From: Vampirovibrionaceae bacterium NZW_1234 | Lineage (GTDB): Bacteria > Cyanobacteriota > Vampirovibrionia > Vampirovibrionales > JAGQHJ01 | Length of the DNA stretch: 64,000 nt | Direction: 5' to 3' | Assembly (NCBI GenBank): GCA_041697335.1 | Contig: JBGUGD010000001.1 | Coordinates: 32,001-96,000 of the forward strand | In this document: positions 1,117 to 38,270 of the stretch, one piece after another | Layout: each line of letters begins with the position of its first letter | Position numbering within the stretch: position 1 is the first letter of the stretch | Position numbers and translations under genes: made by a program | The notes under the pieces: generated by a model | Databases searched by the model: none | Told to the model about the DNA's origin: nothing | Seen by the model: only the letters and a program-made list of their open reading frames with translations

Positions 1117-1257
1117 GGGGCCTCCGGCAGGCCAATGGCCTGATCTCGCTGCGGTTGTCATGGAATTGGATTCATTGAATCACGTCCACGCAATTCTGGA
1201 TATTGAGGGGTTTGTAATACCAATACCCCTGTTTCACAGATTGAGGGATACACACGC

Positions 1258-4200
1258 TTGATGCCTCTGTTGCCCGTTGGGTTTCTGCACCATGCCTCCC
1301 GCCTTGGGGCGGGTCAGCGCCATCTTGGTGACCCTATTTCCCGGCCTCGCTTTGGGTCGGATGCAGCGTCGCCCTCAGCCGAAGACGCGTCCCCGGGGTA
1401 TGGGCGTCGGATCTCGGCCTCACACGAACAGGCGTTGGTGGCCCGCCTTCGCGAGGGGGATCAGGAAGCGTGGCTGGAACTTCATCAGGCGTATCTGCCC
1501 TTTGCCCGCTATCTGGCGCGTCTGAATCAAAATCGCCATGGGCTTGATGTGGAAGAGGTGGGCAATGCCTGCGAGTTTGGGTTGGCCATGGCCATCGAAG
1601 AGGTTAAGAAGGAAGAAGTCAAGCAACCAGAGTCTGCCGAGGAAACGTTTCTCAAGCGCATTACCCGCCATGCCAATCGGGCCCTGAATGAGGCTCGGGG
1701 GAAAAACCCGTTGGGCAGTTCCTTGAATGCGCCCATGGCCAGTGATTCGGACACAACCTTTGCCGCCCTGCTGGCTGAAGACACCTTGAGCCCCGATGAG
1801 CAGGCCGCTCAGGACAAGAAGATCCGCATGGTTTTGCAGGCCTTGCCGTGCCTGACCTTTATGGAAGAAGCCGTCGTTATTTTAGGGTTCGGGTTGAATA
1901 CCCGGGTTCCGTTGCCGCCGGAAGAGATAGGCCAGCGCCTTGGCGTGTCGGCGGATACCGTTCGCAAGTATACCGATGCGGGTTTGGACAAGATGACCCA
2001 GATCTACCGCTGGAAGGCCTCTAAGCGCAACCGGGGGGATCAGGCCTCGGTGCCCATCAAGCGGGTCAATGCCCTGGCCAAACTGGTGGAAGACAAGCGC
2101 GCCATCCGGCCCCTGGTTCAGCGCCATTGGGATGCCTTTACCGAGGCGGAGCAAGCTACCCTGCGTCGTCTGGTGTTCATCCAGATGTCGCCGGAACATG
2201 CTGCCCAGGAACTGAAAATACCGGAAGAAAGGCAATACCGGCATGCGGTTGATATTCTCAGCAAGCTACGACAGTTGGTTGGGGTTGAAGCCCCGGTTAC
2301 GGATGCGTCTCAGGAAGACGCTGAGTTTTTGAACAACTTGATTCGCCTGACGGGGCTGACGAAGCTTCGGCCTCAGCACCTGGATTGCCTGACGTTACAG
2401 GAACGGACGCTCTTGCGCTTGTCCGTGGGCGAGGTAGCTTCGGATGAGGAGGTTGCTGATACCCTGTCGATACCTTTGGATGCAGTGGCCAAGGGGCGGG
2501 ATGAGGCCATTGTGAAGCTTAAACAGCACTTGCAAAAGGGATCGACCGGCTTTCGGGCCACCCGTCAGTCTGTGACCGCCGGATTGGATCAGGTTCTCGA
2601 TGACCACCATGTGGATATTCTGGCCCAGCAGTGGGAAGAGGGCCAATCGGCCCAGGCTATCGCCGAGGCCAGTGGGGGGCTCAAACGCTCGACGATTACG
2701 GGGCGGATTCAACACGCCGTGAAGGCTCTTCGGGAGTCTCGTGAATTGCCCGCCGCTGCGGTAAAGGAAGCCCTGGAGGTTCCGGTGACGGATGACCGCT
2801 TGGCCCAGGCCCTGGTGAAAGAAGGCATTCAGGGGCTGACGCCCCGGATGCTGCAAACCCAGCTGACGGAGAATCAGCGCCAGGTGCTTCGATTGCGCCT
2901 AAAAGGCTGGAGCTATGCCGACATTGCCCGGCATCTTGAACGTACCGAGGCGCCCATCAAGAGTACGGTCGCCCGGGCGCTGGCCAAGCTCAGGAAAGTG
3001 GCCCAAGCCAACGACATCCTGACGCCGCTCCACCAACACGGGTTGACCCAAATCCGATCGGAGGATCTGGCCCCACTATCTCCGCGTCATCAGCAGTTGC
3101 TGGGGCTTTACTTTGCCAAGGGGCACCATCTTAGGCGGTTTGTCAACGAGATGCAGGCCGTTTCCGGGGCGGATACGGTGAAGCAGTTGGAGACACGTTT
3201 GAGTGCGGCTGTCGAGGCCCTGCCGCCCCAGCAGAAGTCTTATCTGACCCTGCGGTGTGACTCGGAGAAAAGCTTCAGCGAACTGGCACGGGACCTGAAC
3301 ACCGGCTTGTCCCAGGTGACGCAGGCGGTCTATGCCGGGTTGGTCAATGTCGAGAAAAGCATGAACCCGGTCACCCTGGTTTCTCAGCTTCAGGATGAAG
3401 GCTTTGTGGCCCTGGATGAGGTGTCTCTGAACGCGATTTCCGAGCCGCACCAGGCATTCTTGAGGGCCTATCTGAACGAGGGCTTCTCTCTGGCCGGGGT
3501 GGTCCATCGGCTGCCCAAGGGGGCTTCGGGCAAGACGCTTGCAATCGGGCTTGCCCAGGAGATTGCCGCGGGCTTTGAGAAGGTGCCTCCCCGTTCGCTG
3601 GACATTGCCCTGCATTACTGGACCCATGACTGTCAAGACGGGGCCGTTACCCAGAAGTATGGCTTGACGGCTTCGGGCAGACGGGATCATGTGGGTAAGG
3701 CCTTGTCTATCCTGGTGCCTGCCTTGGGCGATGTGTCCCTGGAGCAGCGGTTGAAACGATTTGGGCTGGACGTGGGTGCGAGCACCCTGGGCTTGTTGTC
3801 CGAGAAAGAGCGGGGGATTCTGGAAGCCTATTTGCGCCAAGGCCATGGACTGGAGACGCTGGCCGCCAACCTGGCCGGGTTCCCGAAGGGGACGGTTTAT
3901 GGGCAGCGCTTTGTTGACGAGATTCAGGCCGCCATGGGGGCGATGACGGACAAGCAGCAACAGGCGATGGATGTCTACCGGCAAAACGGCTTTCGCATGC
4001 AAGCATCTGCCAAAGCCTTGGCGGTGAACTTTCATTCGGTTCGCGCCCTGTTGGCCAAGGGGTGTGTGAATATGGCCCAGGTCTTTTCCCAGGGCAGCTT
4101 GGCGATGAAACTGCATCACCAGGGCTTTGCCCATATCCGGCCGGAGGCTTTGAAGGCCTTGCCGGAGGAGACCGGTCGACTGTTGCGCCTGTATCTGGAC

Positions 4201-4494
4201 AAGGGGTATTCCCTGGCACTGGTGGCCAAGCCGGTACAGGGCAATGAAGCGCAGTTTGTTCCGGCCATCCAGAGTGCCCTGAAGGGCGCACTGGCGGGTC
4301 TGCGGTCCGAACCCCAGCGCCAGGCCTTGAGTCATTATTGCAGTGGGGATCTGTCCTATGCCGATGTGGCCGAGAAAATGGGGCTGGGACGGGATGCCAA
4401 AGACCCGGCGGGGATGTTGATCCAGGCAGGCTTAAAAATGATGCGTCGCAGTTTGGAAGGCGAACACCTATCCGAGGGGACGGACCGCCCGTAG
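1258..4494 (+). CDS. Giant sigma-70-like protein with tandem region-4 HTH repeats and RFG leader
   Basis: Region 2-like GDQEAWLELHQAYLPFARYLAR...GLAMAIE, region 3-like SSLNAPMASDSDTT, region 4 LTFMEEAVVILGFGL...EEIGQRLGVSADTVR, then many more units such as LTENQRQVLRLRLKGWSYADIARHL. Confidence 0.75.
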   Translation: MMPLLPVGFLHHASRLGAGQRHLGDPISRPRFGSDAASPSAEDASPGYGRRISASHEQALVARLREGDQEAWLELHQAYLPFARYLARLNQNRHGLDVEEVGNACEFGLAMAIEEVKKEEVKQPESAEETFLKRITRHANRALNEARGKNPLGSSLNAPMASDSDTTFAALLAEDTLSPDEQAAQDKKIRMVLQALPCLTFMEEAVVILGFGLNTRVPLPPEEIGQRLGVSADTVRKYTDAGLDKMTQIYRWKASKRNRGDQASVPIKRVNALAKLVEDKRAIRPLVQRHWDAFTEAEQATLRRLVFIQMSPEHAAQELKIPEERQYRHAVDILSKLRQLVGVEAPVTDASQEDAEFLNNLIRLTGLTKLRPQHLDCLTLQERTLLRLSVGEVASDEEVADTLSIPLDAVAKGRDEAIVKLKQHLQKGSTGFRATRQSVTAGLDQVLDDHHVDILAQQWEEGQSAQAIAEASGGLKRSTITGRIQHAVKALRESRELPAAAVKEALEVPVTDDRLAQALVKEGIQGLTPRMLQTQLTENQRQVLRLRLKGWSYADIARHLERTEAPIKSTVARALAKLRKVAQANDILTPLHQHGLTQIRSEDLAPLSPRHQQLLGLYFAKGHHLRRFVNEMQAVSGADTVKQLETRLSAAVEALPPQQKSYLTLRCDSEKSFSELARDLNTGLSQVTQAVYAGLVNVEKSMNPVTLVSQLQDEGFVALDEVSLNAISEPHQAFLRAYLNEGFSLAGVVHRLPKGASGKTLAIGLAQEIAAGFEKVPPRSLDIALHYWTHDCQDGAVTQKYGLTASGRRDHVGKALSILVPALGDVSLEQRLKRFGLDVGASTLGLLSEKERGILEAYLRQGHGLETLAANLAGFPKGTVYGQRFVDEIQAAMGAMTDKQQQAMDVYRQNGFRMQASAKALAVNFHSVRALLAKGCVNMAQVFSQGSLAMKLHHQGFAHIRPEALKALPEETGRLLRLYLDKGYSLALVAKPVQGNEAQFVPAIQSALKGALAGLRSEPQRQALSHYCSGDLSYADVAEKMGLGRDAKDPAGMLIQAGLKMMRRSLEGEHLSEGTDRP

Positions 4495-11122: not shown

Positions 11123-14100
11123 TTAATTTTGGAAGGCCCGGTAGAACTTTTGGGGGAGTTTTTCGGTGTCCATGATGACGCCTAAACGCTCCAGGAGCTT
11201 GTTGAAGTCCTGGTTGACGCCAAGGCGCTGGGCCGCTTGCACGGCTTTGACTGCATCCAGGGCGCCGGCGCCATCCACGCCGTCGTTGAGCTGATAGGCG
11301 GTGTCGGCCATGATTTTCTTGAACTGCTCGGTGTCCAGTGGGCGTCCTGCTGCCTGACTCATCAGAAGGGCCACAGCCGCCGTGACCGGGGCACTGAAGG
11401 AGGTACCGTCGGCTTCACCACTGGCCAGATCCCCGTTGGGTGCTCTGTCTAGAAGGGGCAGGTGGGTGCCCATGGCCATGATGTTGGGCGGAATGGCGTT
11501 AAACACATCCTGCATGCTGCTGAACCAGGAGGCCTTGTGTTGCGTGCGATCGGCGGAGCCCAGCGTATCGATGGCCCCCACCAGGATGACCCCTTTGCTC
11601 TGGGCCAGCTTGCCGTTTTCCTTGTGGAAGCCCAGGGCGTTCAAGGTGCCTACCAAGTGGTGGTTCAGGGTATCGCCGCGTTCGTTTCCGGCAGAAATGA
11701 TGAAGGTAATCCCGGCTTCGCTACCGGCTTTGAACCGGGCGCCCAGTTTGTTCAGGTAGCCTTTGACAGTGGTATCGTCGCCATACAGTAGGGCGGAGGT
11801 GCCGCCCAGGGAAATGTTGACTACCGAGACCTTGCTCTTGCCACTGGTGCGCTGGGCAATGATATCATCGATAGACCGGAGCAGGCCGTCGACTTGTTCA
11901 ATGGTGGCGCCTTTTTCCGGGAATTTCGCATCATCCCAGGCGGCGTAGCTCCAGATTTTTTCCACGCCCGGGGCAATGCCGTACTTTTTATTGGCAATGA
12001 CATCGGCCACGGTTTCGCCGTGGAAGGACTCTCTTAAGGCCATATCCCGGGTGCGTCCCCAGGTGGGGTAAACCACCTTGCCTTTGAAGCTGTCGATATC
12101 GTCGTTGATGTAGTCGCCGTCGATAATGGCAATTTCCGTGCCCCGGCCGTCAATGCCTTTTTTGTGCAGCTCATCGATGCCCAGCGAGGTGGCCAGCAGA
12201 TAAGAGGCGACTCGGTTGTCTTTCATGTAATTGGTTTTGCCGTTGCTGTTATGGATCAGGGCATTGGCAATGGCCCGGCGCAACACGGTGTTGGGTGTTT
12301 TTTCCATGAACTTCAGCAGATCCTCGCCGCCGCCATGACGCTCGATGGCTTGGGCATAGAGGTTTTTAATGAAACTGTTCATGCGATCGCCGGCTTCCAA
12401 ATCGACTTTGGGCATGCGGGTCATCAGGCGGGTGGCCAGCTCGGTGCGCTTTTGCAGAACCGCTTTGTCGGCGCTGGTTTCCGTGTTTTTGCCAATCTCG
12501 CCCAGGGCGTTGATGGCGAAAAAGTGGATGCGGCGATTGTCACTGCGAAGGGCTTTTTCCAGAAGCTCGGTATCGTCCATATTGCCGGATTTGCCCAAGG
12601 CCTTGATGGCGGCCAGGCGGGTCCCTTGGGCTACCTGCATCTTGGTATGGCCCGGGAACATGAACTGGTCGTTGGAGGAGGCGATATCCGGAATCTGGGT
12701 CCGGGCCAAGGGATCGCGAATCAGATCCTTCAGGGCGGGCTTCATGGATTCATCGCGCATTTCACCCAGGCTGCTGATCATCAGGATGCGTAAAAAGCCG
12801 TCGACATCTTCGGTTTTGCTGACATAGGTCCGCATGGCGTCGGCATGGGCTTTAAATTCCGGCTTGGCGGCCAGATCCTGCCATTTTTTGCCGAAGGACG
12901 AATAGCTCTTCACGCGCTGTTCGACAATACCCTGGGTGGCTTCATCCAGGGCTTTGCCCGAAGCATTCAGGCGTTGCAGGGCTTTTCGGACATCGCGGAT
13001 TTCGTTGAAAATTTCCGACTTGTAAAAGCTCTTGGTAAATTGCGGGTGGGTGCTGTACACGGCCGCATACTTTTGCAGCGAGCGCAAACGATTGGTATTG
13101 GTTTTCATGTCCCCGCCCAGAGATGGGGTCAGGATCTCATGGACCGAGGCCAGGGCATCGAACCGCGTATCGCTGTCTTCCATTTTATCGGTCGCAATGG
13201 TCATCAGGCTTTTAATGGCGGTTTCGTCTTTCAGCATGGCGCTGCCGACCATGGCCATGCGGCGCAGGGTGCGGTTGTCCTCGGAATTGGTTTGCAGCGT
13301 ATTGCTGTAGATGTCCTGAAACAGGGGGCCTGCCTTCTGGAGCTTCATGCTGCTGAGGAGGGAAATCCCCAGTTTGCGAAGCTTAACGGAGTTTTGTTGG
13401 ATCTTTTCGTTCAGCTGTTTCTCGACTTTGGGATCCGGGGTGGAAGAGCTGGATGCCGGTTTGGCCGTGACTTCCCGGACTTTGACCTGGGCCTGTTTGA
13501 GGCTCGCAAAATCCAGCAGCTGGTTTTGGACATCGTCTTTCTGGTGTTTGAAATACTCGATGGTTTTTTCAAACACAGTGTCGTTGTCCTGGAAGTACAA
13601 GGGGTAGGCTGCCATTTGTTTCAACAGGATGGGGGCGGCTTCCGGCTGTCGGTCGTCCAGTAAATAAGTGATAATGCGCTGGGCGCCTTTTTCGGGGAAG
13701 GATCCCGGAGGGGGTTCCGAGCCGCCGCCGAAAATAAAGGTGACTTTTTCGCCTTTGGCCGGAGGCATGACGGGGGCTTTTTCCGCGGGTGGGGCGGGTT
13801 TTGCCACGGTATCCTGAGGGACAATCAGTTTTTCCACCTTGGTCCATATGGTTTTGTTTTCATGGCGCAAGAGGACGCCGACGGTGGCTGCCGTGAGATC
13901 CGGCTGATCCGCCACTTTGAGTTGATCCAGAAACTTCAGCATCTCTTCGCCGACAGCTTTGTCCTGAGGTGCATAGCGAAGGGCTTCCAAGGACATCAGC
14001 CGGTTGGACATAGGCAATGTCACTTCCTGGGCGGCTTCCATCAGTTGGGCCTTGGTGCGGGGATCCGCCGTGCGACCCAGGGAGCGGGCGGCAATCAGGC

Positions 14101-14671
14101 GCAGATCCTTGACCACATATTTGGAACTGTCTTCCAGCTCCTCTACCTCGTCCGGGCTCATAAACCGGGAGGCTTTGGGGCGTTCACCGTCTTTGGTTTT
14201 CTCGGAGACCACCACTTTGAGCATATACGGCATGATGGCCTTGCTGAATTCTTCCCGATCGGCCGCGTTGCCTTTGGCACCCAGCTTGCCCAAGGCCTGG
14301 ACTGCTGCCTTGAGGGTGTATTCACTGGCAACGCCGTCGCTTAAAATGCGCTTGATATGGGGAATGGCATCGCGTTCGTTAATCTCCCCGGCATTGTGCA
14401 GGGCAGCTGCCACGAGGTCATCATCGGTGCTTTCCAACTGCTTGACCAGCTTTGCGCTTTCCGGGGTGACGGCGGCTTTGGCCGAATCCGTAAAGACAGG
14501 TGCAAATAAGCCTGCCGTGGCCAACGCGGCAACGGGAAGAAAGGCGCTTTTTCTCACCGGCCCCGATTCGCGTTGACTGCCAAAAACAGGCGATGCCTGA
14601 CGGGCTGCTGTGGACGTTGCTGTTTTCGGCAGACGATATGCAGGCACATGGCCGAATTGAATGGTCACCAT
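11123..14671 (-). CDS. HEAT-repeat protein with C-terminal S8 subtilisin-like protease
   Basis: IAIIDGD (Asp), FHGETVA (His), SAGNE (oxyanion Asn), DGTSFSAP (Ser); HEAT-like units AAVQALGKLG, RLAAIKALGKSG, FAINALGEIG. Confidence 0.85.
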   Translation of the reverse strand: MVTIQFGHVPAYRLPKTATSTAARQASPVFGSQRESGPVRKSAFLPVAALATAGLFAPVFTDSAKAAVTPESAKLVKQLESTDDDLVAAALHNAGEINERDAIPHIKRILSDGVASEYTLKAAVQALGKLGAKGNAADREEFSKAIMPYMLKVVVSEKTKDGERPKASRFMSPDEVEELEDSSKYVVKDLRLIAARSLGRTADPRTKAQLMEAAQEVTLPMSNRLMSLEALRYAPQDKAVGEEMLKFLDQLKVADQPDLTAATVGVLLRHENKTIWTKVEKLIVPQDTVAKPAPPAEKAPVMPPAKGEKVTFIFGGGSEPPPGSFPEKGAQRIITYLLDDRQPEAAPILLKQMAAYPLYFQDNDTVFEKTIEYFKHQKDDVQNQLLDFASLKQAQVKVREVTAKPASSSSTPDPKVEKQLNEKIQQNSVKLRKLGISLLSSMKLQKAGPLFQDIYSNTLQTNSEDNRTLRRMAMVGSAMLKDETAIKSLMTIATDKMEDSDTRFDALASVHEILTPSLGGDMKTNTNRLRSLQKYAAVYSTHPQFTKSFYKSEIFNEIRDVRKALQRLNASGKALDEATQGIVEQRVKSYSSFGKKWQDLAAKPEFKAHADAMRTYVSKTEDVDGFLRILMISSLGEMRDESMKPALKDLIRDPLARTQIPDIASSNDQFMFPGHTKMQVAQGTRLAAIKALGKSGNMDDTELLEKALRSDNRRIHFFAINALGEIGKNTETSADKAVLQKRTELATRLMTRMPKVDLEAGDRMNSFIKNLYAQAIERHGGGEDLLKFMEKTPNTVLRRAIANALIHNSNGKTNYMKDNRVASYLLATSLGIDELHKKGIDGRGTEIAIIDGDYINDDIDSFKGKVVYPTWGRTRDMALRESFHGETVADVIANKKYGIAPGVEKIWSYAAWDDAKFPEKGATIEQVDGLLRSIDDIIAQRTSGKSKVSVVNISLGGTSALLYGDDTTVKGYLNKLGARFKAGSEAGITFIISAGNERGDTLNHHLVGTLNALGFHKENGKLAQSKGVILVGAIDTLGSADRTQHKASWFSSMQDVFNAIPPNIMAMGTHLPLLDRAPNGDLASGEADGTSFSAPVTAAVALLMSQAAGRPLDTEQFKKIMADTAYQLNDGVDGAGALDAVKAVQAAQRLGVNQDFNKLLERLGVIMDTEKLPQKFYRAFQN

Positions 14672-16498: not shown

Positions 16499-19400
16499 AT
16501 GAAAATTTCATTCCCTGGCGTGGGTTCGGAGCGAAAAACGAGTCTACCTCAAGCCCACACGGAAGGTCAGATGGTCTTGCACGCGCCTTCGGCAACACCT
16601 CGATTTTCGGGAGACGCTGGGGGCCGTCCCGCTCGTGCCGGTTTGTTGGCTCGGTTGATGGGGGCCGCTGCGTTTCTGCTTCCGGCCTCGCTGCCCTTGG
16701 TAACCCCAGCCACCCTTCAAGCGCAACAACCGGGACAACCCCAAAAAGTCTATACCGATCAGCGGCCTGATGGCACCCGCATTGAGTCGGTGGACTCGCC
16801 CCAGGATTTGAATCACCTGATCGAATTGCTCAGACAAGATAACCGAAACATTGTTCAACCGTTCAAACAGCCGTTGGTGAGTGAAAAGACGGAACAACGC
16901 GTCAACCAGCTGGTTCAACGCTTGCAAGACAAGCAGCTGGGCCACCTGAAAGTCATTATCGTCAACCGCTCCAATACGGGAAATCGCTTTTTTAACCTGG
17001 CCGAAGACATTCAGAGTTCCTTGCGCCTGGGCCGCAATAATACGATTTTAATCAATGCCGGTGCCCTTCGAGGTGAGTCAGGTGGCAAGCGGATTGCGGT
17101 GACCAACACCCAGTCCATGCTCGAGGCCATGCGGCTTTCCGTGGGGCAGTTCAACCAGCAAAGCGGCAACATTCTGGATGCCCACTTTAAGCCTGCCGCA
17201 TTGGCGGGTGACTACGACAAAGCGGTTGAGGATACGGTTGAAGCCTTGGTGAAACTGGTTGAAGAGCGTGCGGCTCAGCAAAACGGTGGCGAACGACCCA
17301 CGCCTGCCCCCGGTGGCAGTTCTGGTCCGACCATGGATGCTGAGACCACCAAGACGGTTTTTGGGGTGCTGTGCTTCCTGTTTTTTGCCGTCGGCGCCGG
17401 TGGGTTTGGTGTTCTGGTGGCGCGCCAGATGATGAAAAAGCGCCAGCAAGTCCAAGGCAACGTGAATGTGGCAAAGGCCGTCTTGAATGACATTGGATCC
17501 GGGTATGAAGTGGATCGCGGCAACCTGTATTCCATTCCCACGCTGACGGCCTTGTTGCAGCCTACGGGCTCTCCTCAGGCCCACCAGCTGCAAGCGGTTT
17601 TTAATGATATTGAAACCACGTTGGAGAAGAAAAACGCCTCGGGTGACAGTGCCCTGGTGCAACGTCAGCAACTGAAGGAACTGTATCTGAAAGAAGGGTT
17701 GAGCCATCCCAACGCCTTGGTGCGTAACTTCTTTGCCAAACGGTTCCTGTCCAAATTTGAGTTTGATGCCCAAGCCAAACAAACCTTTTATGCCCGCATT
17801 GCCGAAGAAAGCGATGGCGCCGTTGTCGAATCCCTCTCCAAGCCCTTGGTGGAAAAAGCGACAGCTGAGGATCGTCCCAAGTTTCTGGAAGGCCTCTCCA
17901 GTAAATTGGATGGCTGGCGTCAGTTGAGCGTGAACATGCTCGCCAAGCTGTATCAGCCGGGTGATGCCGATACGTTTTGGAAAGCTCTGGCGACAGAAAC
18001 CGATGTCGATGTGAAAGGCGCGCTGAATAAGGCTTTGTTGGCTCATCCCAATGACATCCCTGGCGATACGCTGAAGGCGGCTTTGGCAGCAGAAAACGTG
18101 GCGCAAAAAGAAGCTGCTATTGCTCTTTTAGCCAAGCAGGGTGAATTTACCACGTTATTCGATGCGGCCGAGCAGGAAGCCAATCCGGATTTCCAGAAAT
18201 CTTATCAGGTGGCCTTGAAGGACGCTGTCTCTGAGGCGTCCCTGCCCAAATTGAAGGAAGCCCTTCAAGGGTCCGATGTCGCATCGGCCTTGGCCTTGGC
18301 TTTGCTGGTTCCGGTTGCTCACAAAGAGAAAGCACAGGCCGGAAATGCGGCCCTGGCTGCATTTCATAAAACCCTGGCCAAGTCCCCGGAGACCCCGGAT
18401 CTGGTCGAAAGCCTCTTCGGGCTGGTGGTGTCCGGTTCTGCCGACAAAGCGGAACAAGCCTCCCAAGCGGTCGCTCATCTGGCCAACAAGGCAAGTAAAG
18501 GAAAACTGCTTGCCGCGCTAGGCAGTGACGCGAGTCTGGCTCGTTTGACAGCGGCCAATGCCCTTGATGGGTTGACCGAGGCTGCTGATCTGGAGTCGTT
18601 GCTCAAGGCCAAATCGAGTGAGCAGGATGATAGTGTACGGCAGGCTCTGGAGAAACCAGTAAAGACGGCTCTTAAATCGTCTGGGGCATTCGATACCCTT
18701 ACCGGTTTGTTGGTGAGCCGGTCTGCTTCCGTGCCAACCCAACTTCTAGCCATTCAACACATGACCGAATTTGACAGCAAAGCCGTTCAGCCCTTGGTTG
18801 CCTTGTATGAGGCCACTGAGAATAAGGAGCTGGATAACGCGGTTGAGGAAAGTCTGGAGGCCATTTCACGGGCCTCTGAAGAAGGTACGGAAGCCCTGAT
18901 GGGCTTTGTGGACGCCAGCAAAAAGCAGACCAAGAAAATGGCGGCTAAAATTGTGGCTCAAACCGTGACGCAATGGGCTGAATCCAAGACCTATGATAGC
19001 GCCAAAGCCATGACGCTCTTGCGGACCTGGAAAGATCATGACAATAAGGCCGTTAGCGCCGCAGCGAAACTGACCTACAATGCCCTGGTGGACAAGAAAG
19101 TCGTCGAGGTCAAAACCGAAGCGGCTGAGCGCTACAGTGAAGCTCGCATTAAAAAATTGAAGGCCTTGAGAGATTCTGCCCCGGAACAAACTATTCAGGA
19201 TGCGGCGGAAGAAACCATAACGGCATTGACGGCTAAAAGACCCAAACCGACCCCGCAGAAACCGTATGGAACTCCTTCTCCTTACGGGGGTGGTTCTTCT
19301 TCCGGCGGAAGACGGTCTTATGATCCGCCGCCCTCTGGTGGTGGTGTCGTAATTTTCCCGTCACCCTCGTACGATCCGCCTCCGCCGTCGTACTACCCGC

Positions 19401-19537
19401 CGCCGCCATCCTATTACCCGCCTCCACCAAGTTACTATCCTCCCTCGTATGATCCGCCTCCGTCCTATGACCCGCCACCATCATACGATCCACCCCCGTC
19501 CTATGATCCCCCTTCCGGTGGTGGCAGTGACTGGTAG
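16499..19537 (+). CDS. TPM-domain membrane protein with HEAT-like helical repeats and SY(D/Y)PPP tail
   Basis: Leader ...PRFSG, signal-like segment, TPM-like domain (LVSEKTEQRVNQLVQRLQ...FKPAALAGDYDKAVEDTVEAL), one TM, Ala/Leu-rich helical repeats, ends GGGSDW like YgcG-type TPM proteins; GAGGAG RBS. Confidence 0.7.
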   Translation: MKISFPGVGSERKTSLPQAHTEGQMVLHAPSATPRFSGDAGGRPARAGLLARLMGAAAFLLPASLPLVTPATLQAQQPGQPQKVYTDQRPDGTRIESVDSPQDLNHLIELLRQDNRNIVQPFKQPLVSEKTEQRVNQLVQRLQDKQLGHLKVIIVNRSNTGNRFFNLAEDIQSSLRLGRNNTILINAGALRGESGGKRIAVTNTQSMLEAMRLSVGQFNQQSGNILDAHFKPAALAGDYDKAVEDTVEALVKLVEERAAQQNGGERPTPAPGGSSGPTMDAETTKTVFGVLCFLFFAVGAGGFGVLVARQMMKKRQQVQGNVNVAKAVLNDIGSGYEVDRGNLYSIPTLTALLQPTGSPQAHQLQAVFNDIETTLEKKNASGDSALVQRQQLKELYLKEGLSHPNALVRNFFAKRFLSKFEFDAQAKQTFYARIAEESDGAVVESLSKPLVEKATAEDRPKFLEGLSSKLDGWRQLSVNMLAKLYQPGDADTFWKALATETDVDVKGALNKALLAHPNDIPGDTLKAALAAENVAQKEAAIALLAKQGEFTTLFDAAEQEANPDFQKSYQVALKDAVSEASLPKLKEALQGSDVASALALALLVPVAHKEKAQAGNAALAAFHKTLAKSPETPDLVESLFGLVVSGSADKAEQASQAVAHLANKASKGKLLAALGSDASLARLTAANALDGLTEAADLESLLKAKSSEQDDSVRQALEKPVKTALKSSGAFDTLTGLLVSRSASVPTQLLAIQHMTEFDSKAVQPLVALYEATENKELDNAVEESLEAISRASEEGTEALMGFVDASKKQTKKMAAKIVAQTVTQWAESKTYDSAKAMTLLRTWKDHDNKAVSAAAKLTYNALVDKKVVEVKTEAAERYSEARIKKLKALRDSAPEQTIQDAAEETITALTAKRPKPTPQKPYGTPSPYGGGSSSGGRRSYDPPPSGGGVVIFPSPSYDPPPPSYYPPPPSYYPPPPSYYPPSYDPPPSYDPPPSYDPPPSYDPPSGGGSDW
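19316..19516 (+). repeat. Coding repeat: nine SY(D/Y)PP(PP) units
   Basis: SYDPPPSGGGVVIFPSPSYDPPPPSYYPPPPSYYPPPPSYYPPSYDPPPSYDPPPSYDPPPSYDPPS, with varied codons. Confidence 0.95.
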
Positions 19538-34045: not shown

Positions 34046-34858
34046 CTAGAAAATCGCGGCATGGTCATTCAGGTAGTGTTCCAGGAGTTTGATAAAAATA
34101 GGCAGAGTGGCCAGAAACACCCCGAGGCCGATACAGGGTTTTAAAGCAAAGCTTAGCTGGAAGACCTGGATTTGTTGTGCCGTTCTATTCACGATCCCGA
34201 GCATCAAATCTACGGTGATGGTGACAATCAGGACAGGGGCAATTAATTGTGCTCCGATGGCAAGGGAGTTGCCGCCCAGTTGAATGAGATAATCAATGCT
34301 GATTTGACTGGCAAAATCCGGGGTCATGCCTTGGATGGGGAAGACTTCAAACGTCCGGTTCAACGCATTGATAAGCCAATAAAATCCGCCCAGATGCAGA
34401 AAAACCATTAAGCCGATGTAGCCGGTGAGTTTTTCTGTTAGTGCCACTTGTTGCCGGGAACTGGGGTCAAACATCATGGCGGAGGACAAGCCTATCTGGT
34501 TGTTCATCAGCGAACCTGCCGAGTTGATACACTCCATAATCATGGAACCGATAAACCCGATGAGCAGACCTACCGTGATGTTGGCAAAAATCTGAATCAA
34601 GTAAGGGAAGAGATCCAGCATGGTTACAGCCCGATTGTGAATGGGATCGCCTGGAAGGTGCCATGCCAGAACAAAGCTCATCAGAAAAGCAATGCCAAGT
34701 TTGATGTTGAAGGGGATATCTTTTCGTCCCAGGATTGGAGCCACCATCACAAAGCCCAACATTCGGCAGAAGACGAGAAAGGTGGTATCCACAATAGCGC
34801 CAAACTGGTGATGAAGAAGGGCTATTTGGCTGATGAGGCCTCCAAACTCCGCTTGCAT
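34046..34858 (-). CDS. fliR: Type III export gate subunit FliR/SctT
   Basis: LVFCRMLGFVMVAPILG, QIGLSSAMMFDP, DLMLGIVNRTAQQIQVFQLSFALK. Confidence 0.93.
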   Translation of the reverse strand: MQAEFGGLISQIALLHHQFGAIVDTTFLVFCRMLGFVMVAPILGRKDIPFNIKLGIAFLMSFVLAWHLPGDPIHNRAVTMLDLFPYLIQIFANITVGLLIGFIGSMIMECINSAGSLMNNQIGLSSAMMFDPSSRQQVALTEKLTGYIGLMVFLHLGGFYWLINALNRTFEVFPIQGMTPDFASQISIDYLIQLGGNSLAIGAQLIAPVLIVTITVDLMLGIVNRTAQQIQVFQLSFALKPCIGLGVFLATLPIFIKLLEHYLNDHAAIF

Positions 34859-34864
34859 TCCGTT

Positions 34865-35404
34865 TTATTCCTTCTTGAATTCGGGGGGCTTGGGTAATGT
34901 GCCTGTCGCTCGACGCTTCATGTAAATTTGCTCGCCAACACCCGGCTTGGGAGCCACTCGCGTGCTGTTGACGTTTAGCGTGGAATTATTTTCCGTGAGT
35001 TCGTTGACTTTGGACGATTGCTTCATCATGGCCTGGATTTTGTTTTCACCAGGGACGTGTTTCGGCTCCCGGAAAAAGTCGTCTTTGGCTTTGGCGCCGT
35101 AAGCAATTCGGGGTTTGGGGGGGAGAATCATCAGGGAATCTTTTGGAATGACTTCCAGGCCCAGGTGAAAGGACTCTAAAATAAAATCTCGCATTGCGTC
35201 CATCATGAAAGGACCACCTAAAACAATCAGCATAAACACGCAGACAATCTTGGGTGCAGCCGAGATGGTTTGTTCCTGAACCTGGGTAACCGCCTGAAGA
35301 ATCCCGATGATTAAACCGATACCGGCGGCCAGTAATACGGCGGGCATGGACAAGAGCAGCATAAGCCCGATACCGTGGCTGACATGTTGCATTAATATGT
35401 CCAT
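34865..35404 (-). CDS. fliQ: Type III export gate subunit FliQ/SctS with long C-terminal extension
   Basis: LSMPAVLLAAGIGLIIGILQAVTQVQEQTISAAPKI; 179 aa. Confidence 0.9.
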   Translation of the reverse strand: MDILMQHVSHGIGLMLLLSMPAVLLAAGIGLIIGILQAVTQVQEQTISAAPKIVCVFMLIVLGGPFMMDAMRDFILESFHLGLEVIPKDSLMILPPKPRIAYGAKAKDDFFREPKHVPGENKIQAMMKQSSKVNELTENNSTLNVNSTRVAPKPGVGEQIYMKRRATGTLPKPPEFKKE

Positions 35405-35430
35405 GAACAGTACCTCCTTGGGCGTGCCGG

Positions 35431-36072
35431 TTAATTGTAACTGTTGACGAGGCCGTTAATAATGAGTCCCCATCCGTCCACGGCAATAAAGATGAGGATC
35501 TTGAACGGCAATGAAATAATGGTTGGTGAGAGCATCATCATCCCCAAGGCCAGAAGTACGTTTGCCACCACCAAATCCAGGACAATGAAGGGGATGAAAA
35601 TGAGAAATCCGATTTCGAAGGAGGTGCGCAACTCGCTGACCATGAAGGCGGGGGCTACTTCCCAGAAGCTGAGTTCTTCTACACTTTTTGGAGGTGATTT
35701 ATGGGCGAGTTCCACAAAGTAGGCGACGTCTTGTTGGCGGGTCTGGCGCATCATAAATTCCTGAAGCGGTTGGGCGGCTTCTGTAATGATGGCCACGACA
35801 GATTGTTTTTGCTTGATGGGCACCTCGGCTCGTTCGTACATTTCACCAAACACGGGCCCCATAGTATAGATGGTCATAATCAGAGAAATCCCAACTAAGA
35901 CCACGCCGGGAGGCACCTGTTGTGTCCCCAGCGCGGTTTTGAGAATGGACAAGACAATGACATAACGGGTAAAACTGGTGAGACTGACCAAAATAAAAGG
36001 CAGTAAGCTCAAGGCACCCATCAGGATAATGAGTTGAAGTGCGGGATCCATTTTGCCGAATAACTGTTCCAT
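35431..36072 (-). CDS. fliP: Type III export gate subunit FliP/SctR
   Basis: LTSFTRYVIVLSILKTALGTQQVPP, PAFMVSEL, LGMMMLSPTIISLPFKILIF..DGW. Confidence 0.95.
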   Translation of the reverse strand: MEQLFGKMDPALQLIILMGALSLLPFILVSLTSFTRYVIVLSILKTALGTQQVPPGVVLVGISLIMTIYTMGPVFGEMYERAEVPIKQKQSVVAIITEAAQPLQEFMMRQTRQQDVAYFVELAHKSPPKSVEELSFWEVAPAFMVSELRTSFEIGFLIFIPFIVLDLVVANVLLALGMMMLSPTIISLPFKILIFIAVDGWGLIINGLVNSYN

Positions 36073-36077
36073 TGCGG

Positions 36078-36536
36078 CTATTTCCCTCCGAGTTTAAAGC
36101 GATCGGCCAAAATTAATTTGAGGCTGTAGTGGAACCGTTCCTTGAACCCGGCATTGGGGCTCAGCGGTGATGGACTACTGGAATAGTTTGATCCGGTAGT
36201 CAAGCCTGCAACAGTTCCCTCGTCGACTTGTTCGGCCAGAGCCGTTTCGCAAAGGGTCGTGTCAGGTTCTGATTCAAGTGTGGTCAGGTATTCGATTTTG
36301 TCCATGGTTGTTGAGACCAGGACACGCTGGGAACCATAGCGGATGACATATAAATTTTTACGCGGCTCCAAGGCCAATGCCGACTCGACCTGGAGTCCTG
36401 TCCCTGATGGGTTTGATGGCGTGGATGGACCGGTGGGCAGGAGGGATGGATTTTTCTTGAGATAGGCATAGATCAACAGTAAAAAGCCGATGACGCTTAA
36501 GGTTGCCAGGATAAAGTTGGTGAGATAATGGGCCAT
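36078..36536 (-). CDS. fliO: FliO-like protein
   Basis: N-terminal TM, then LQVESALALEPRKNLYVIRYGSQRVLV; directly upstream of fliP. Confidence 0.75.
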   Translation of the reverse strand: MAHYLTNFILATLSVIGFLLLIYAYLKKNPSLLPTGPSTPSNPSGTGLQVESALALEPRKNLYVIRYGSQRVLVSTTMDKIEYLTTLESEPDTTLCETALAEQVDEGTVAGLTTGSNYSSSPSPLSPNAGFKERFHYSLKLILADRFKLGGK

Positions 36537-37792
36537 TAGGTCCAGTCCTCTTCGTCGTCCATATCGTCAAAATCGGATTCTTCCAGGTTTAAGTCCATCA
36601 AGTCGTTGGCTGGGGGCATCTCTTCCTGCTGATGCATTTCTTCGGGGGCTTGAGATACATGGGGCTCCGTCGGCTGTGAGGCATAGGCCGATTTTTGACT
36701 TCGGTTACCCCGAGGTGGTGAGTCATCGACGCCTAAGATTCGGACACCGAATTTGTCACCAACGACCAGGAGTTCCCCCCAGGCAACCGGATGGCCTTCC
36801 ACTTCAATATGAATTCGGTTTTCCATCAGATCACCCACTTCCACCACCAGACCCTGCTCCATGTCTCTGAGGTGACGAAGCGGGAGTTTGACCGGCTCAA
36901 AGGTGGCGGTGACTTCCACTTCCAGGGTGTCCCAAATGTTTTGTTTGATTTCTGCGTCGTTCGCCATAGCGTCGTATCCTTGTTGTTGTAAATGTTCTGG
37001 GGCATGAAACCGTGGTGGAATGGAGATGTTGACGGGAATGGTTCCCTGGGTGATTGAATCGAGCAGATGCCAGCGGCTGGCATGGCTGTTTTCCAGTAAC
37101 ACCACATCGCCCTCTTCCAGGTTTTGGGCTTCTTCCAATTCCACACGGGTTGAGCCGATGCGAAAGCGGGCTTCCACATCAGCGTGATGAAATCGTTCTT
37201 CCGGCAGATTCCAGACCGGCGGCTGCGGGAGGTCTGGAAATTCGGTTTTAAGGCATGATTGAGGAGCTGTGAGGACAATTTGATTAATCTGTTCCGGCTC
37301 GCTGCTATCAAGTATCCAGACCAGGTGGACCAGTGGGTCATGTTCGGGGAGAGGTGCATGTTTATCGGCTTGTTTCAGAAACATCGGATAGAGGATGTGA
37401 AACAATTTCCTGCTGAAGCGCTCCAAAAGGAACACTTCAAAGTTGCGGATATGGTCCAGAGAAAATTCTTTGTCCTCAGCGGGTTTCCCTAGGGCAGATT
37501 CGAACAGGTGTTGGCAAAGCCCTTCTGATATCCGGAGTTGGGTCCAGCGAATACCGTCTTTGTCGAGGCCTTTTTGAGCGACATAAAAATCTTGCATATG
37601 CCAGTAATAATGAGGCTCTTTGGCCACACTGAACAGGCGGGTCCGAATCTGAAGATTCCAGAATTCATGGAGCAATTGCTCAATGGCTGCCTGAACATGT
37701 GTTCCCGGATACAGCAACTGATGTGGTGAAACATCCCGGATTTCCACCGGGGCTTCAGAATGTTGAACAGGGGGGACTGTAAGACCTTCCAT
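36536..37792 (-). CDS. FliM/FliN (SctQ-like) C-ring protein with two SPOA-like domains
   Basis: RIGSTRVELEEAQNLEEGDVVLL and VKLPLRHLRDMEQGLVVEV...VAWGELLVVGDKFGVRI; start placed at ATG 37792 after GGAG. Confidence 0.8.
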   Translation of the reverse strand: MEGLTVPPVQHSEAPVEIRDVSPHQLLYPGTHVQAAIEQLLHEFWNLQIRTRLFSVAKEPHYYWHMQDFYVAQKGLDKDGIRWTQLRISEGLCQHLFESALGKPAEDKEFSLDHIRNFEVFLLERFSRKLFHILYPMFLKQADKHAPLPEHDPLVHLVWILDSSEPEQINQIVLTAPQSCLKTEFPDLPQPPVWNLPEERFHHADVEARFRIGSTRVELEEAQNLEEGDVVLLENSHASRWHLLDSITQGTIPVNISIPPRFHAPEHLQQQGYDAMANDAEIKQNIWDTLEVEVTATFEPVKLPLRHLRDMEQGLVVEVGDLMENRIHIEVEGHPVAWGELLVVGDKFGVRILGVDDSPPRGNRSQKSAYASQPTEPHVSQAPEEMHQQEEMPPANDLMDLNLEESDFDDMDDEEDWT

Positions 37793-38270
37793 CAACGCAC
37801 CATACTTCTCTCCATCCCCTACCTTATCGGTTTGTAGACGCCTCCACATCATCCGGCTGAAGGAAGCCATAGGGCAGGAGGAGGATGGAGGTAGGGTGGA
37901 TCTTGTGTTGAATGAGTGTCGGAATGAGCCAGCGAAAAGTGTTTTTGCCATCAATTATGTTCCCAGGCCAATAGGCTTTCTTAAGCGTAATGGGTTTTCT
38001 GGGATTGCCAAGAATCCTATGTCTGAAGGAGAGCCTTTGGAAAAGTGCCATCACGAAAAAGAGCGGCACTTCTATTGTTTGTTTATGTAAATAAAAGTAA
38101 CAAAATTCGCTATAGGCTCTCTTTGACTAGCACGTTTTTGAGCCTTCCGGTTTTTATTAAGGAAACCTTATATTTATCTTAATTATATCTATCATTGGCA
38201 ACTGCCATAGCAAGCCGATGCTGCTTGTTCAGGAAGAGAAGAGAGAAAGAAAAGTAGGAAGAGAAGGGCA

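Follow-up and report, generated by a model that had tools for sequence, protein, structure and literature searches.

A sigma-factor derivative with a tandem array of region-4-like units and a candidate export leader in a Vampirovibrionaceae bacterium

The window analysed here is a stretch of 64,000 nucleotides (nt) from the genome of Vampirovibrionaceae bacterium NZW_1234 (assembly GCA_041697335.1, contig JBGUGD010000001.1, positions 32,001 to 96,000). Positions 1258–4494 of its forward strand contain an open reading frame (ORF) for a protein of 1078 amino acids (aa), named P0001, in which parts of a sigma-70 factor are combined with an array of region-4-like units. The frame is open throughout and has start codons TTG at 1258 and ATG at 1261; a Shine-Dalgarno-like GAGGGA at 1243–1248 on the same strand may serve in translation initiation. 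The source genome, G000 (other G numbers denote comparison genomes), is 3.70 Mb long and 94.75% complete, and contains a single copy of the gene. Contigs of four public runs labelled as hot-spring or microbial-mat metagenomes cover the P0001 DNA in 19–27 of 30 bins. These runs represent at most three samples, one of them possibly the source itself, and run entries of equal size are possibly one data set deposited twice. No single contig piece spans the whole gene; no substitution or indel is listed for the ORF, and the long pieces show no differing letters. There are no RNA runs among the public runs listed as containing the P0001 DNA.

Scanned whole against Pfam, with the sigma models that the earlier note on this DNA had proposed, P0001 matches Sigma70_r4 (E-value 8e-27) and Sigma70_r4_2 (5e-24) and has no match to Sigma70_r2; the scan also contains no receiver domain. 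The superfamily model TIGR02937 is the only one of the 25 NCBIfam models shown for P0001 to pass its own cut-off (98.9 bits against 42.9). In HHalign comparisons, the segment at 1411–1707, which comprises the end of region 1.2 and regions 2.1 and 2.2, matches the sigma 2 profile at 97.3% (E-value 2e-11, score 60.9 over 86 columns; shuffles score 9–13). The description of P0001 as a sigma-70-like protein of 1078 aa thus holds.

Domain 2, with a mean family identity of 37%, is among the better conserved segments of P0001. The aromatic melting motif of region 2.3, present in the SigA-type proteins of G000, is missing from all six full-length family members. Domain 2 is fused directly to a linker that resembles the region 3.2 finger (1708–1824), as indicated by matches in the Protein Data Bank (PDB) and by alignment. 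In the alignment with the sigma factors of G000, regions 3.0–3.1 are deleted and the finger is retained, most clearly in P0001. An intact region 3 is ruled out by this alignment, and the sole region-3 profile match of P0001 falls on the helix-turn-helix (HTH) of the next unit, U1. U1 (1825–2007, HHalign score 66) is a region 4 of the group-1/2 type with an FGL insert and a recognition helix that has diverged from that of SigA. The top PDB matches, RpoS and SigA, cover aa 146–251. Of the degenerate core of regions 2, 3 and 4 described in the earlier note, domain 2, the 3.2 finger and region 4 are found; an intact 2-3-4 core is not.

By its sequence, P0001 belongs to none of the sigma groups tested. 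It has the domain 2 homology of sigma-70 factors (regions 2.1–2.2 with the core-binding helix), despite the missing Pfam Sigma70_r2 match. P0001 and five homologs lack the residues of regions 2.3–2.4 that capture the −10 strand, the three-helix bundle of domain 3 (3.0–3.1) characteristic of groups 1–3 is missing, and the single C-terminal domain 4 is replaced by nine full and four degenerate copies. Its finger and group-1/2 insert set the core apart from the extracytoplasmic function (ECF) sigmas of group 4, and it has neither the receiver domain nor the NepR partner of a PhyR-type mimic. P0001 is probably a pseudo-sigma, as it lacks regions 3.0–3.1 and the aromatic motif for −10 melting. In the available parts of a published account, sigma contacts the beta-prime coiled coil through region 2.2, captures the −10 strand with regions 2.3–2.4, and uses domain 4 for the −35 element and the beta flap (PMC4598750). 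Since the 2.2 scaffold is kept and the 2.3 motif lost, the simplest interpretation would be that P0001 binds core polymerase without melting promoters.

It is also conceivable that P0001 is an active sigma factor, which uses a non-standard melting surface and steers its own or a host polymerase to long composite promoters recognized through the array. The passed TIGR02937 cut-off, the retention of domain 2, finger and region 4, the existence of region-3-less sigmas with an intact 2.3 motif (P0010 and P0016) and the intact state of related leader-tagged sigmas agree with this possibility. However, none of the six family members has a conserved region 2.3 aromatic, and the Sigma70_r2 match is missing, which makes an active sigma highly unlikely.

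Downstream of U1, P0001 contains twelve additional units of the region-4 type. U2 (2110–2280, HHalign score 37.9), U3 (2365–2538, 49.4), which is shortened in two homologs, U4 (2575–2745, 31.7), the least conserved with 22% family identity, and U5 (2839–3009) are full units. They are followed by four super-repeats, at 3052–3366, 3415–3729, 3775–4089 and 4135–4461, recognized by HHalign and conservation, and the first also by Pfam. Each is formed of a "half" unit (H) and a full HTH unit: H1 (3052–3195) with U6 (3196–3366), H2 (3415–3558) with U7 (3559–3729), H3 (3775–3918) with U8 (3919–4089), and H4 (4135–4275) with U9 (4276–4461). All these units are on the forward strand. The H units begin at aa 599, 720, 840 and 960, and the period is 120–121 aa instead of the approximately 125 aa given earlier for the four super-repeats, the composition of which agrees with the H and U profiles.

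As family profiles, all nine full units match a canonical region-4 profile, with HHalign scores of 29–66 over 47–57 columns and probabilities of 86–98%; the maximum among ten column-shuffled profiles per unit is 10.6–14.6. The canonical profile leans towards U1, because it was built from a SigA-like protein of G000 and 78 matches of the P0001 search. The H units match it weakly (17.5–23 over 17–47 columns) and score 30–73 against each other. They appear to be better described as degenerate units, the third helix of which would continue into the next full unit. The count of about nine full and four partial units is therefore correct, with the four degenerate ones forming a second class. When the units are scanned singly in Pfam, matches are obtained for U5 (Sigma70_r4_2, 6e-12), U6 (8e-6), U1 (7e-5), U3 (1e-3), U9 (3e-3), U4 (0.03; GcrA 9e-5) and U8 (0.06), and none for U2 and U7. 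Thus, seven of the nine full units alone have a region-4 match at an E-value of ≤0.06, and two of the nine are above the curated region-4 cut-off. The repeats that the earlier note expected from a repeat analysis are evident in the self-comparison of the family profile (off-diagonal E-value 2e-46), whereas BLAST of the single sequence against itself detects none.

The best conserved repeats are U6 (46% family identity), U5 and U9 (40% each) and U2 (36%), recognition-helix positions included, and it is in these four that conserved recognition-helix faces are clearest. The identity of H1–H4 is 26–30%, and mainly hydrophobic positions are kept. U5 and U8 are strongly basic, with an isoelectric point of 11.3 for U5, whereas U1, U3 and U6 are acidic (4.7–5.1). 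U5, with a conserved SPxK at its recognition helix, is the best candidate for a DNA-binding unit. The previously suggested modular reading of DNA may apply to U2, U5, U6 and U9; the acidity of U1, U3 and U6 speaks against reading by all units. The acidic units, and the fact that one of them, U6, is the most conserved, could also indicate an exported multivalent decoy, which would soak up the beta flap, anti-sigma factors or activators of a host in a PhyR-like manner without reading DNA. Flap, anti-sigmas and activators are known contacts of region 4 in the available text of PMC4598750. However, although the units differ among themselves, each is conserved at its own place in the array, in U5 and U9 down to residues of the recognition helix, which a simple sponge would not require, and U5 and U8 are strongly basic. 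The decoy is considered quite unlikely.

The search of 1.84 billion representative sequences yielded 122 matches to P0001, including four full-length colinear homologs (P0003–P0006, 26–31% identity) and two partial ones. The partial P0008 groups with P0127, which is full-length and closely related to P0006, and one partial homolog is labelled "Cyanobacteria bacterium" (MBY0402301.1). Three family members are annotated by JGI as "sigma24 family protein". Simpler arrays with a region-3-less core are present in P0009 of G003 (11 profile matches, several weak), in P0017 (six matches) and in a 654-aa protein of G001 (five matches). The small sigmas P0010 and P0016, in which regions 3.0–3.1 are deleted and the 2.3 motif and 3.2 finger are intact, are possible models of the ancestral core. 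The word-based homolog search with query A2 returned only the query itself (1/8000 candidates scored), two of the 301 genomes of the class matched A2, and scans of genome, metagenome and viral contig sets with query A3 found no relative. In the ESM Atlas, sigma-like clusters reach 0.93 for the whole P0001 and ≤0.85 for its C-terminal half; these values are leads only.

The cores of the six proteins of about 1080 aa form one group in a tree of 26 rows and 268 of 521 columns, with support of 99/96. The tree does not place the family among the sigma groups, as the deep forks are unsupported and the branches long, and no donor is claimed because of this unsettled deep placement. A phage origin of P0001 is rejected: no viral relative was found, and the neighbouring genes (MaoC, polyketide cyclase, thiamine-binding, DUF4385 and HNH) are non-phage. 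The single copy and rarity of the gene could be expected of a non-functional repeat expansion or an artefact. This explanation is extremely improbable, and largely refuted by conservation, given the intact colinear homologs of 1073–1121 aa at 26–31% identity, the conserved upstream element described below, and the matching contigs from other runs. The observation of a conserved and unusual protein is confirmed.

The N-terminus of P0001 (aa 1–33, 1258–1356, forward strand) is a basic leader with one acidic residue that ends with PRFG, the RFG being encoded at 1348–1356. Motif enrichment makes it a candidate export signal. Among 2669 ORFs of G000, which are mechanical calls made for this analysis, 165 contain RFG at residues 6–70 and 38 at residues 81–145 (p 1e-20), and RFG is the top N-terminal tripeptide. 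The pattern [PLVI]RF[GAS] is found in the N-terminal range in 167 and in the control range in 14 of the same ORFs. Residues upstream of the motif are rich in proline, serine and threonine and poor in aspartate and glutamate. FliD, a flagellar export substrate, begins with an I-x-F-G motif, and RF-x-G-like leaders are present in three of the five other full-length P0001 homologs. The leader noticed earlier on P0001 is thus part of a genome-wide signal, found also on many orphan proteins and on extra copies of housekeeping enzymes.

Of the 165 RFG ORFs, 71 were scanned and 40 of these have no Pfam match at 1e-6; the same is true, at 1e-8, for 62 of 101 further ORFs from a broader set of 242 with the motif, giving 102 without a match among 172 scanned. 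The matches obtained include FtsH-, Clp-, Lon-, Deg- and M16-type proteins, AAA ATPases, AGPase-like proteins, MDH, hydrolases, PrkA, DUF444, SpoVR, CheR, Ppx-GppA and RtcB, and no ubiquitin-system or F-box domain is found among the 172. The six enzyme types checked (ClpB/C-, FtsH-, AGPase-, MDH-, PRPP-synthetase- and M16-like) have leaderless paralogs. Leader composition and several of the tagged cargo classes presumably resemble those of the plastid stroma. Altogether, about 150–240 ORFs of G000 have a leader of the RF[GAS] type at the N-terminus. Orphans and additional copies of proteases or metabolic enzymes make up most of this set, which is a candidate effector repertoire. At L043:86-4453 and L168:1-5800, adjacent genes for PrkA, SpoVR, DUF444, a second PrkA-like protein and a ClpP-like protein are each leader-tagged. 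In each of two HEAT proteins encoded in the window, one with a subtilase domain (11123–14671, reverse strand) and one with a TPM domain (16499–19537, forward strand), an FG/RFS leader precedes a hydrophobic segment like that of a signal peptide, an arrangement similar to a targeting signal of two steps. Thirteen of the 165 RFG ORFs have a hydrophobic segment shortly behind the motif.

A promoter-like element, GCAATT-N7-TTGAG-N3-TTTGT (1190–1215, forward strand), is common to P0001 and other leader-bearing genes. Its GCAATT-N7-TTGAG part, 68 nt upstream of P0001, has 16 sites in G000, compared with 0–6 at nine other spacings. Fourteen of the 16 precede an ORF, and nine of those ORFs are leader-bearing. 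Independent support is given by the relatives G004, G003, G002 and G001, which contain 31, 21, 16 and 4 sites, compared with 0, 2, 0 and 1 at a shifted spacing. The wider pattern GCAATT-N(15-17)-TTYRW occurs 134 times in G000 against 65–76 times at four control spacings, and 28 of the 79 ORFs downstream of it are leader-bearing, against 412 of 3082 overall; the p of 4e-7 is not independent because the motif was found in the same gene set. The downstream box at P0001 is 1 nt nearer than the 15–17 nt consensus, and therefore the stricter pattern misses the P0001 site. GCAATT followed by a TTTTAT box lies upstream of P0009, of a leader-tagged sigma gene of G001 and, as GCAATC, of the 974-aa leader-tagged sigma gene of G000; a matching element precedes three of seven other leader-sigma genes. 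Leader genes show no upstream enrichment of sigma-28 and sigma-54 patterns and a slight one of a sigma-70-like pattern (6/167 against 13/2040), the scan for which gives no site upstream of P0001.

P0001 is rejected as the reader of the shared promoter, and is considered a member of the regulon, because G004 (92% complete) and G002 (56%) have the element and no array protein was found in them. The leaderless sigma-like pair at G000:C16:18950-19630 and C29:179872-180600, with region 4 and no Sigma70_r2 match, are candidates for this function. Two subclasses of the GCAATT...TTTAT element can be distinguished, one with TTGAG upstream of leader genes and one with TGTTTTTAT upstream of many genes that lack a leader and encode N-termini of low complexity.

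G000 encodes eight proteins with Sigma70_r2 matches, seven of them leaderless, and two more leader-tagged sigma derivatives, one of 719 aa with region 2.3 and the recognition helix intact and one of 974 aa that is degenerate. G001, G003 and G004 each have one intact sigma with a similar N-terminal extension, with the motif RWG in G004. The leader-tagged sigmas are located at L026:2944-5103 and L155:2041-3228 on the forward strand and at L154:2692-4746, L156:1627-2793 and L027:2822-5746 on the reverse strand. Four of these five have an intact melting motif and recognition helix and are candidate working sigma effectors; the fifth is the degenerate 974-aa protein. The most RpoD-like gene of G000 (C18:3584-4189, reverse strand) is a frame of 206 aa that begins inside region 2, possibly because of a frameshift or assembly error. 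A long RpoD at L251:5971-8490 in G181 is unlike that of the lineage, and its contig is likely mis-binned.

A candidate route for the export of leader-tagged proteins is a second, divergent flagellar-type gate, of which fliR-, fliQ- and fliP-like genes lie at 34046–36072 on the reverse strand of the window; its connection to P0001 is conjectural. A canonical flagellar gate is present on contig C2 of G000, together with flagellins and stator-family genes. According to model scores, FliR (157) and FliQ (71) of the second gate are below their cut-offs of 169 and 89, and its 213-aa FliP matches best the SctR subfamily model (236, cut-off 179) and passes the FliP model too. Of the two FlhA-family genes in G000, the second scores 678 bits, under both the FlhA and SctV cut-offs, and adjoins FliI-, FliH-, FliF- and rod-like genes on contig C32. 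The loci of the second export system are L022:10110-19485 and 34046–37954 of the window.

The second FlhA-like protein is 62–67% identical to 13 of the 80 loci returned, and the other 67 are at 32–51%. Eight of the 13 are labelled Vampirovibrio, Gastranaerophilales or Melainabacteria, and two have other labels. Together with the split RpoC1 described below, this places G000 in Vampirovibrionia, presumably in the order Vampirovibrionales. Vampirovibrionia-type FlhA-like genes at L050 and L052, in records labelled Muribaculaceae and Acinetobacter, are likely mis-binned. At least two FHIPEP matches are present in each of the 38 genomes of the order that were compared; in three other families, most genomes have a single match, which scores like the second type, and only one of 39 genomes of family f5 has any FlhA. 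The second gate is therefore retained across most Vampirovibrionia families, even where one FlhA-family gene is left, and is nearly missing in f5. Markers of other systems (VirB4, VirD4, VipB and sheath proteins) were not found in G000, which is 95% complete, and a type IV secretion route is rejected for this genome, as its markers were not found.

These observations can be combined in the reading that P0001 is an exported, non-melting, sigma-derived effector acting on the bacterial-type RNA polymerase of a prey, with an arm that binds DNA or polymerase; this reading is given a little less than an even chance. In the proposed mechanism, P0001 would be expressed from a dedicated promoter class together with other leader-tagged proteins, for which the shared motif is in place and its function is presumed. 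Guided by its RFG leader, it would pass through the second gate, which is of the flagellar type III kind, and reach a compartment of the prey or host that contains a bacterial-type polymerase. There, the domain 2 helices, the 3.2 finger and the first region 4 may dock on core polymerase. Without region 3 and the −10-melting aromatics, such a holoenzyme would be unable to open ordinary promoters and would compete with the host sigma. The additional units could form an arm, with the conserved full units U2, U5, U6 and U9, and perhaps U8, touching DNA or polymerase surfaces and the H units serving as spacers. Such an arm would park the polymerase at particular long sites or repress these sites; the anatomy of the arm is apparent, and its targets are conjectured.

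Several observations weigh against this reading. To our knowledge, no type III system is established as delivering proteins into bacteria. Region-4 arrays were found in three of 49 genomes of the order (G000, G001 and G003), all of one family, in a search whose query partly consisted of G001 and G003 rows, and their distribution is patchy. Several units are acidic, and the recognition-helix sequence of SigA is kept in none. About a quarter of the RFG matches are expected by chance (38 against 165), some leader matches are plain housekeeping genes (FliW, ACPS and RseP), and in two of the five other full-length homologs (P0004/P0125 and P0006) the N-terminus as called lacks a clear leader. The element GCAATT is missing from three of the seven other leader-sigma genes, and a fourth has GCAATT and no clear downstream box; it was also not found within 200 nt of the three second-gate operon starts tested. 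The enriched leader, rich in serine, proline and threonine and poor in acidic residues, and the second gate may point to a type III effector, but the leader is not significantly enriched in the sampled regions of G106, G160 and G008 (112–274 ORFs each), which were compared for its occurrence with the gate. The cultured relative Vampirovibrio chlorellavorus is, in the available text of its description, an epibiotic predator of Chlorella with spikes that enter the prey, which is in favour of export; the published proposal for its delivery, however, is a type IV secretion system (PMC4451040), the markers of which were not found in G000.

The blank samples of the leader and gate correlation are also consistent with an endogenous, stage-specific regulator, a competitor of the cell's own sigma factors or a large transcription factor, the leader of which would mark it for degradation or for a particular location in an attack-phase programme. 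Among the tagged proteins are whole bacterial modules (PrkA, DUF444, SpoVR and CheR) that could function at home, and the cell's own polymerase is of the cyanobacterial split type, with a short RpoC1 in all 25 of 25 genomes (frames of 574–599 aa). However, P0001 does not read the shared promoter, as 31 sites in G004 and 16 in G002 occur with no array protein found, and the patchy distribution, long branches, tagged orphans and spare hydrolases resemble an effector repertoire. An endogenous regulator is considered unlikely. The preferred reading of an exported effector has a broader variant, in which Vampirovibrionia inject a co-regulated, leader-tagged set of bacterial-type proteins, working sigmas and pseudo-sigmas among them, through the class-wide, flagellum-derived second type III system into the cyanobacterial cytoplasm or plastid stroma of a prey, and P0001 would be a reader similar to transcription activator-like (TAL) effectors that hijacks the prey polymerase. 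This variant is regarded as doubtful, if possible.

The proposal of the earlier note that P0001 might act on a foreign polymerase is favoured by its context, that is, the upstream element, the second type III gate and the leader-tagged sigmas. The plastid named there is only one of two targets, as an algal plastid is about as probable as a bacterium, cyanobacterial or other. Bacterial prey fits equally, because the DNA comes from hot-spring and mat metagenomes and the tagged cargo is of bacterial type. Counted for a plastid are the Chlorella prey of the relative, the presumed stromal likeness and the ability of type III effectors to enter chloroplasts, which is described in the available parts of PMC6321325. 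Counted for a bacterium are the mat habitat, the PrkA, SpoVR and CheR cargo, and the retention of the gate in Gastranaerophilales. The latter are gut-associated.

P0001 resembles sigma-70 factors of groups 1 and 2 (RpoD/SigA and RpoS) in its domain 2 scaffold, 3.2 finger, region 4 with FGL insert and best PDB matches, but differs in the missing regions 3.0–3.1 and 2.3 aromatics, the altered recognition helix, the twelve extra units and the leader. With ECF sigmas that have C-terminal extensions it shares domains 2 and 4 without domain 3 and a long C-terminal extension, yet its core is of the group-1/2 type and its extension consists of region-4 copies. The available text of the ECF reclassification names extensions such as SnoaL in ECF41, TPR in ECF42 and a Cys-rich one in ECF238, and neither a region-4 array nor the word "tandem"; the supplement could bear on novelty (10.1101/2019.12.11.873521). 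The sigma mimic PhyR has sigma-2/4-like domains apparently unused for initiation, but, in the available text, it has a receiver domain, acts in its own cell by binding NepR, and has no array or leader (PMC4598750). Phage sigma factors and region-4-only proteins (PHROGs 351, 1740 and 1190) are sigma modules of foreign origin that work on the polymerase of a host, as is proposed for P0001; unlike P0001, they are made inside the host from phage DNA and have a single region 4.

TAL effectors are injected, alter host transcription and are built of modular repeats, as is proposed for P0001. The chloroplast-targeted type III effectors HopK1, AvrRps4 and HopN1 are injected and alter host transcription or plastid function, and none of those described in the available parts of the source is sigma-derived or aimed at a bacterial-type polymerase (PMC6321325). 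Both kinds of effector differ from P0001 in their unrelated folds and in having eukaryotic nuclear or photosystem targets. In the parts of the literature searched, which include few subscription journals, there is no description of a sigma-family protein with a tandem region-4 array, of an exported sigma factor, or of this leader or this second gate, and no paper found there treats Vampirovibrionia together with a type III secretion system. The combination of export and target would be categorically new.

P0001 is a sigma derivative that probably works like an injected transcription effector. Its tandem region-4 array offers a natural scaffold for the modular recognition of DNA or polymerase. 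If exported, P0001 would represent a sigma-derived effector that is injected and directed against a polymerase of bacterial type. The source lineage includes algal predators. For predation or parasitism by Vampirovibrionia, which is poorly understood, testable candidates would then be available for the machine, the signal, the promoter and the cargo.

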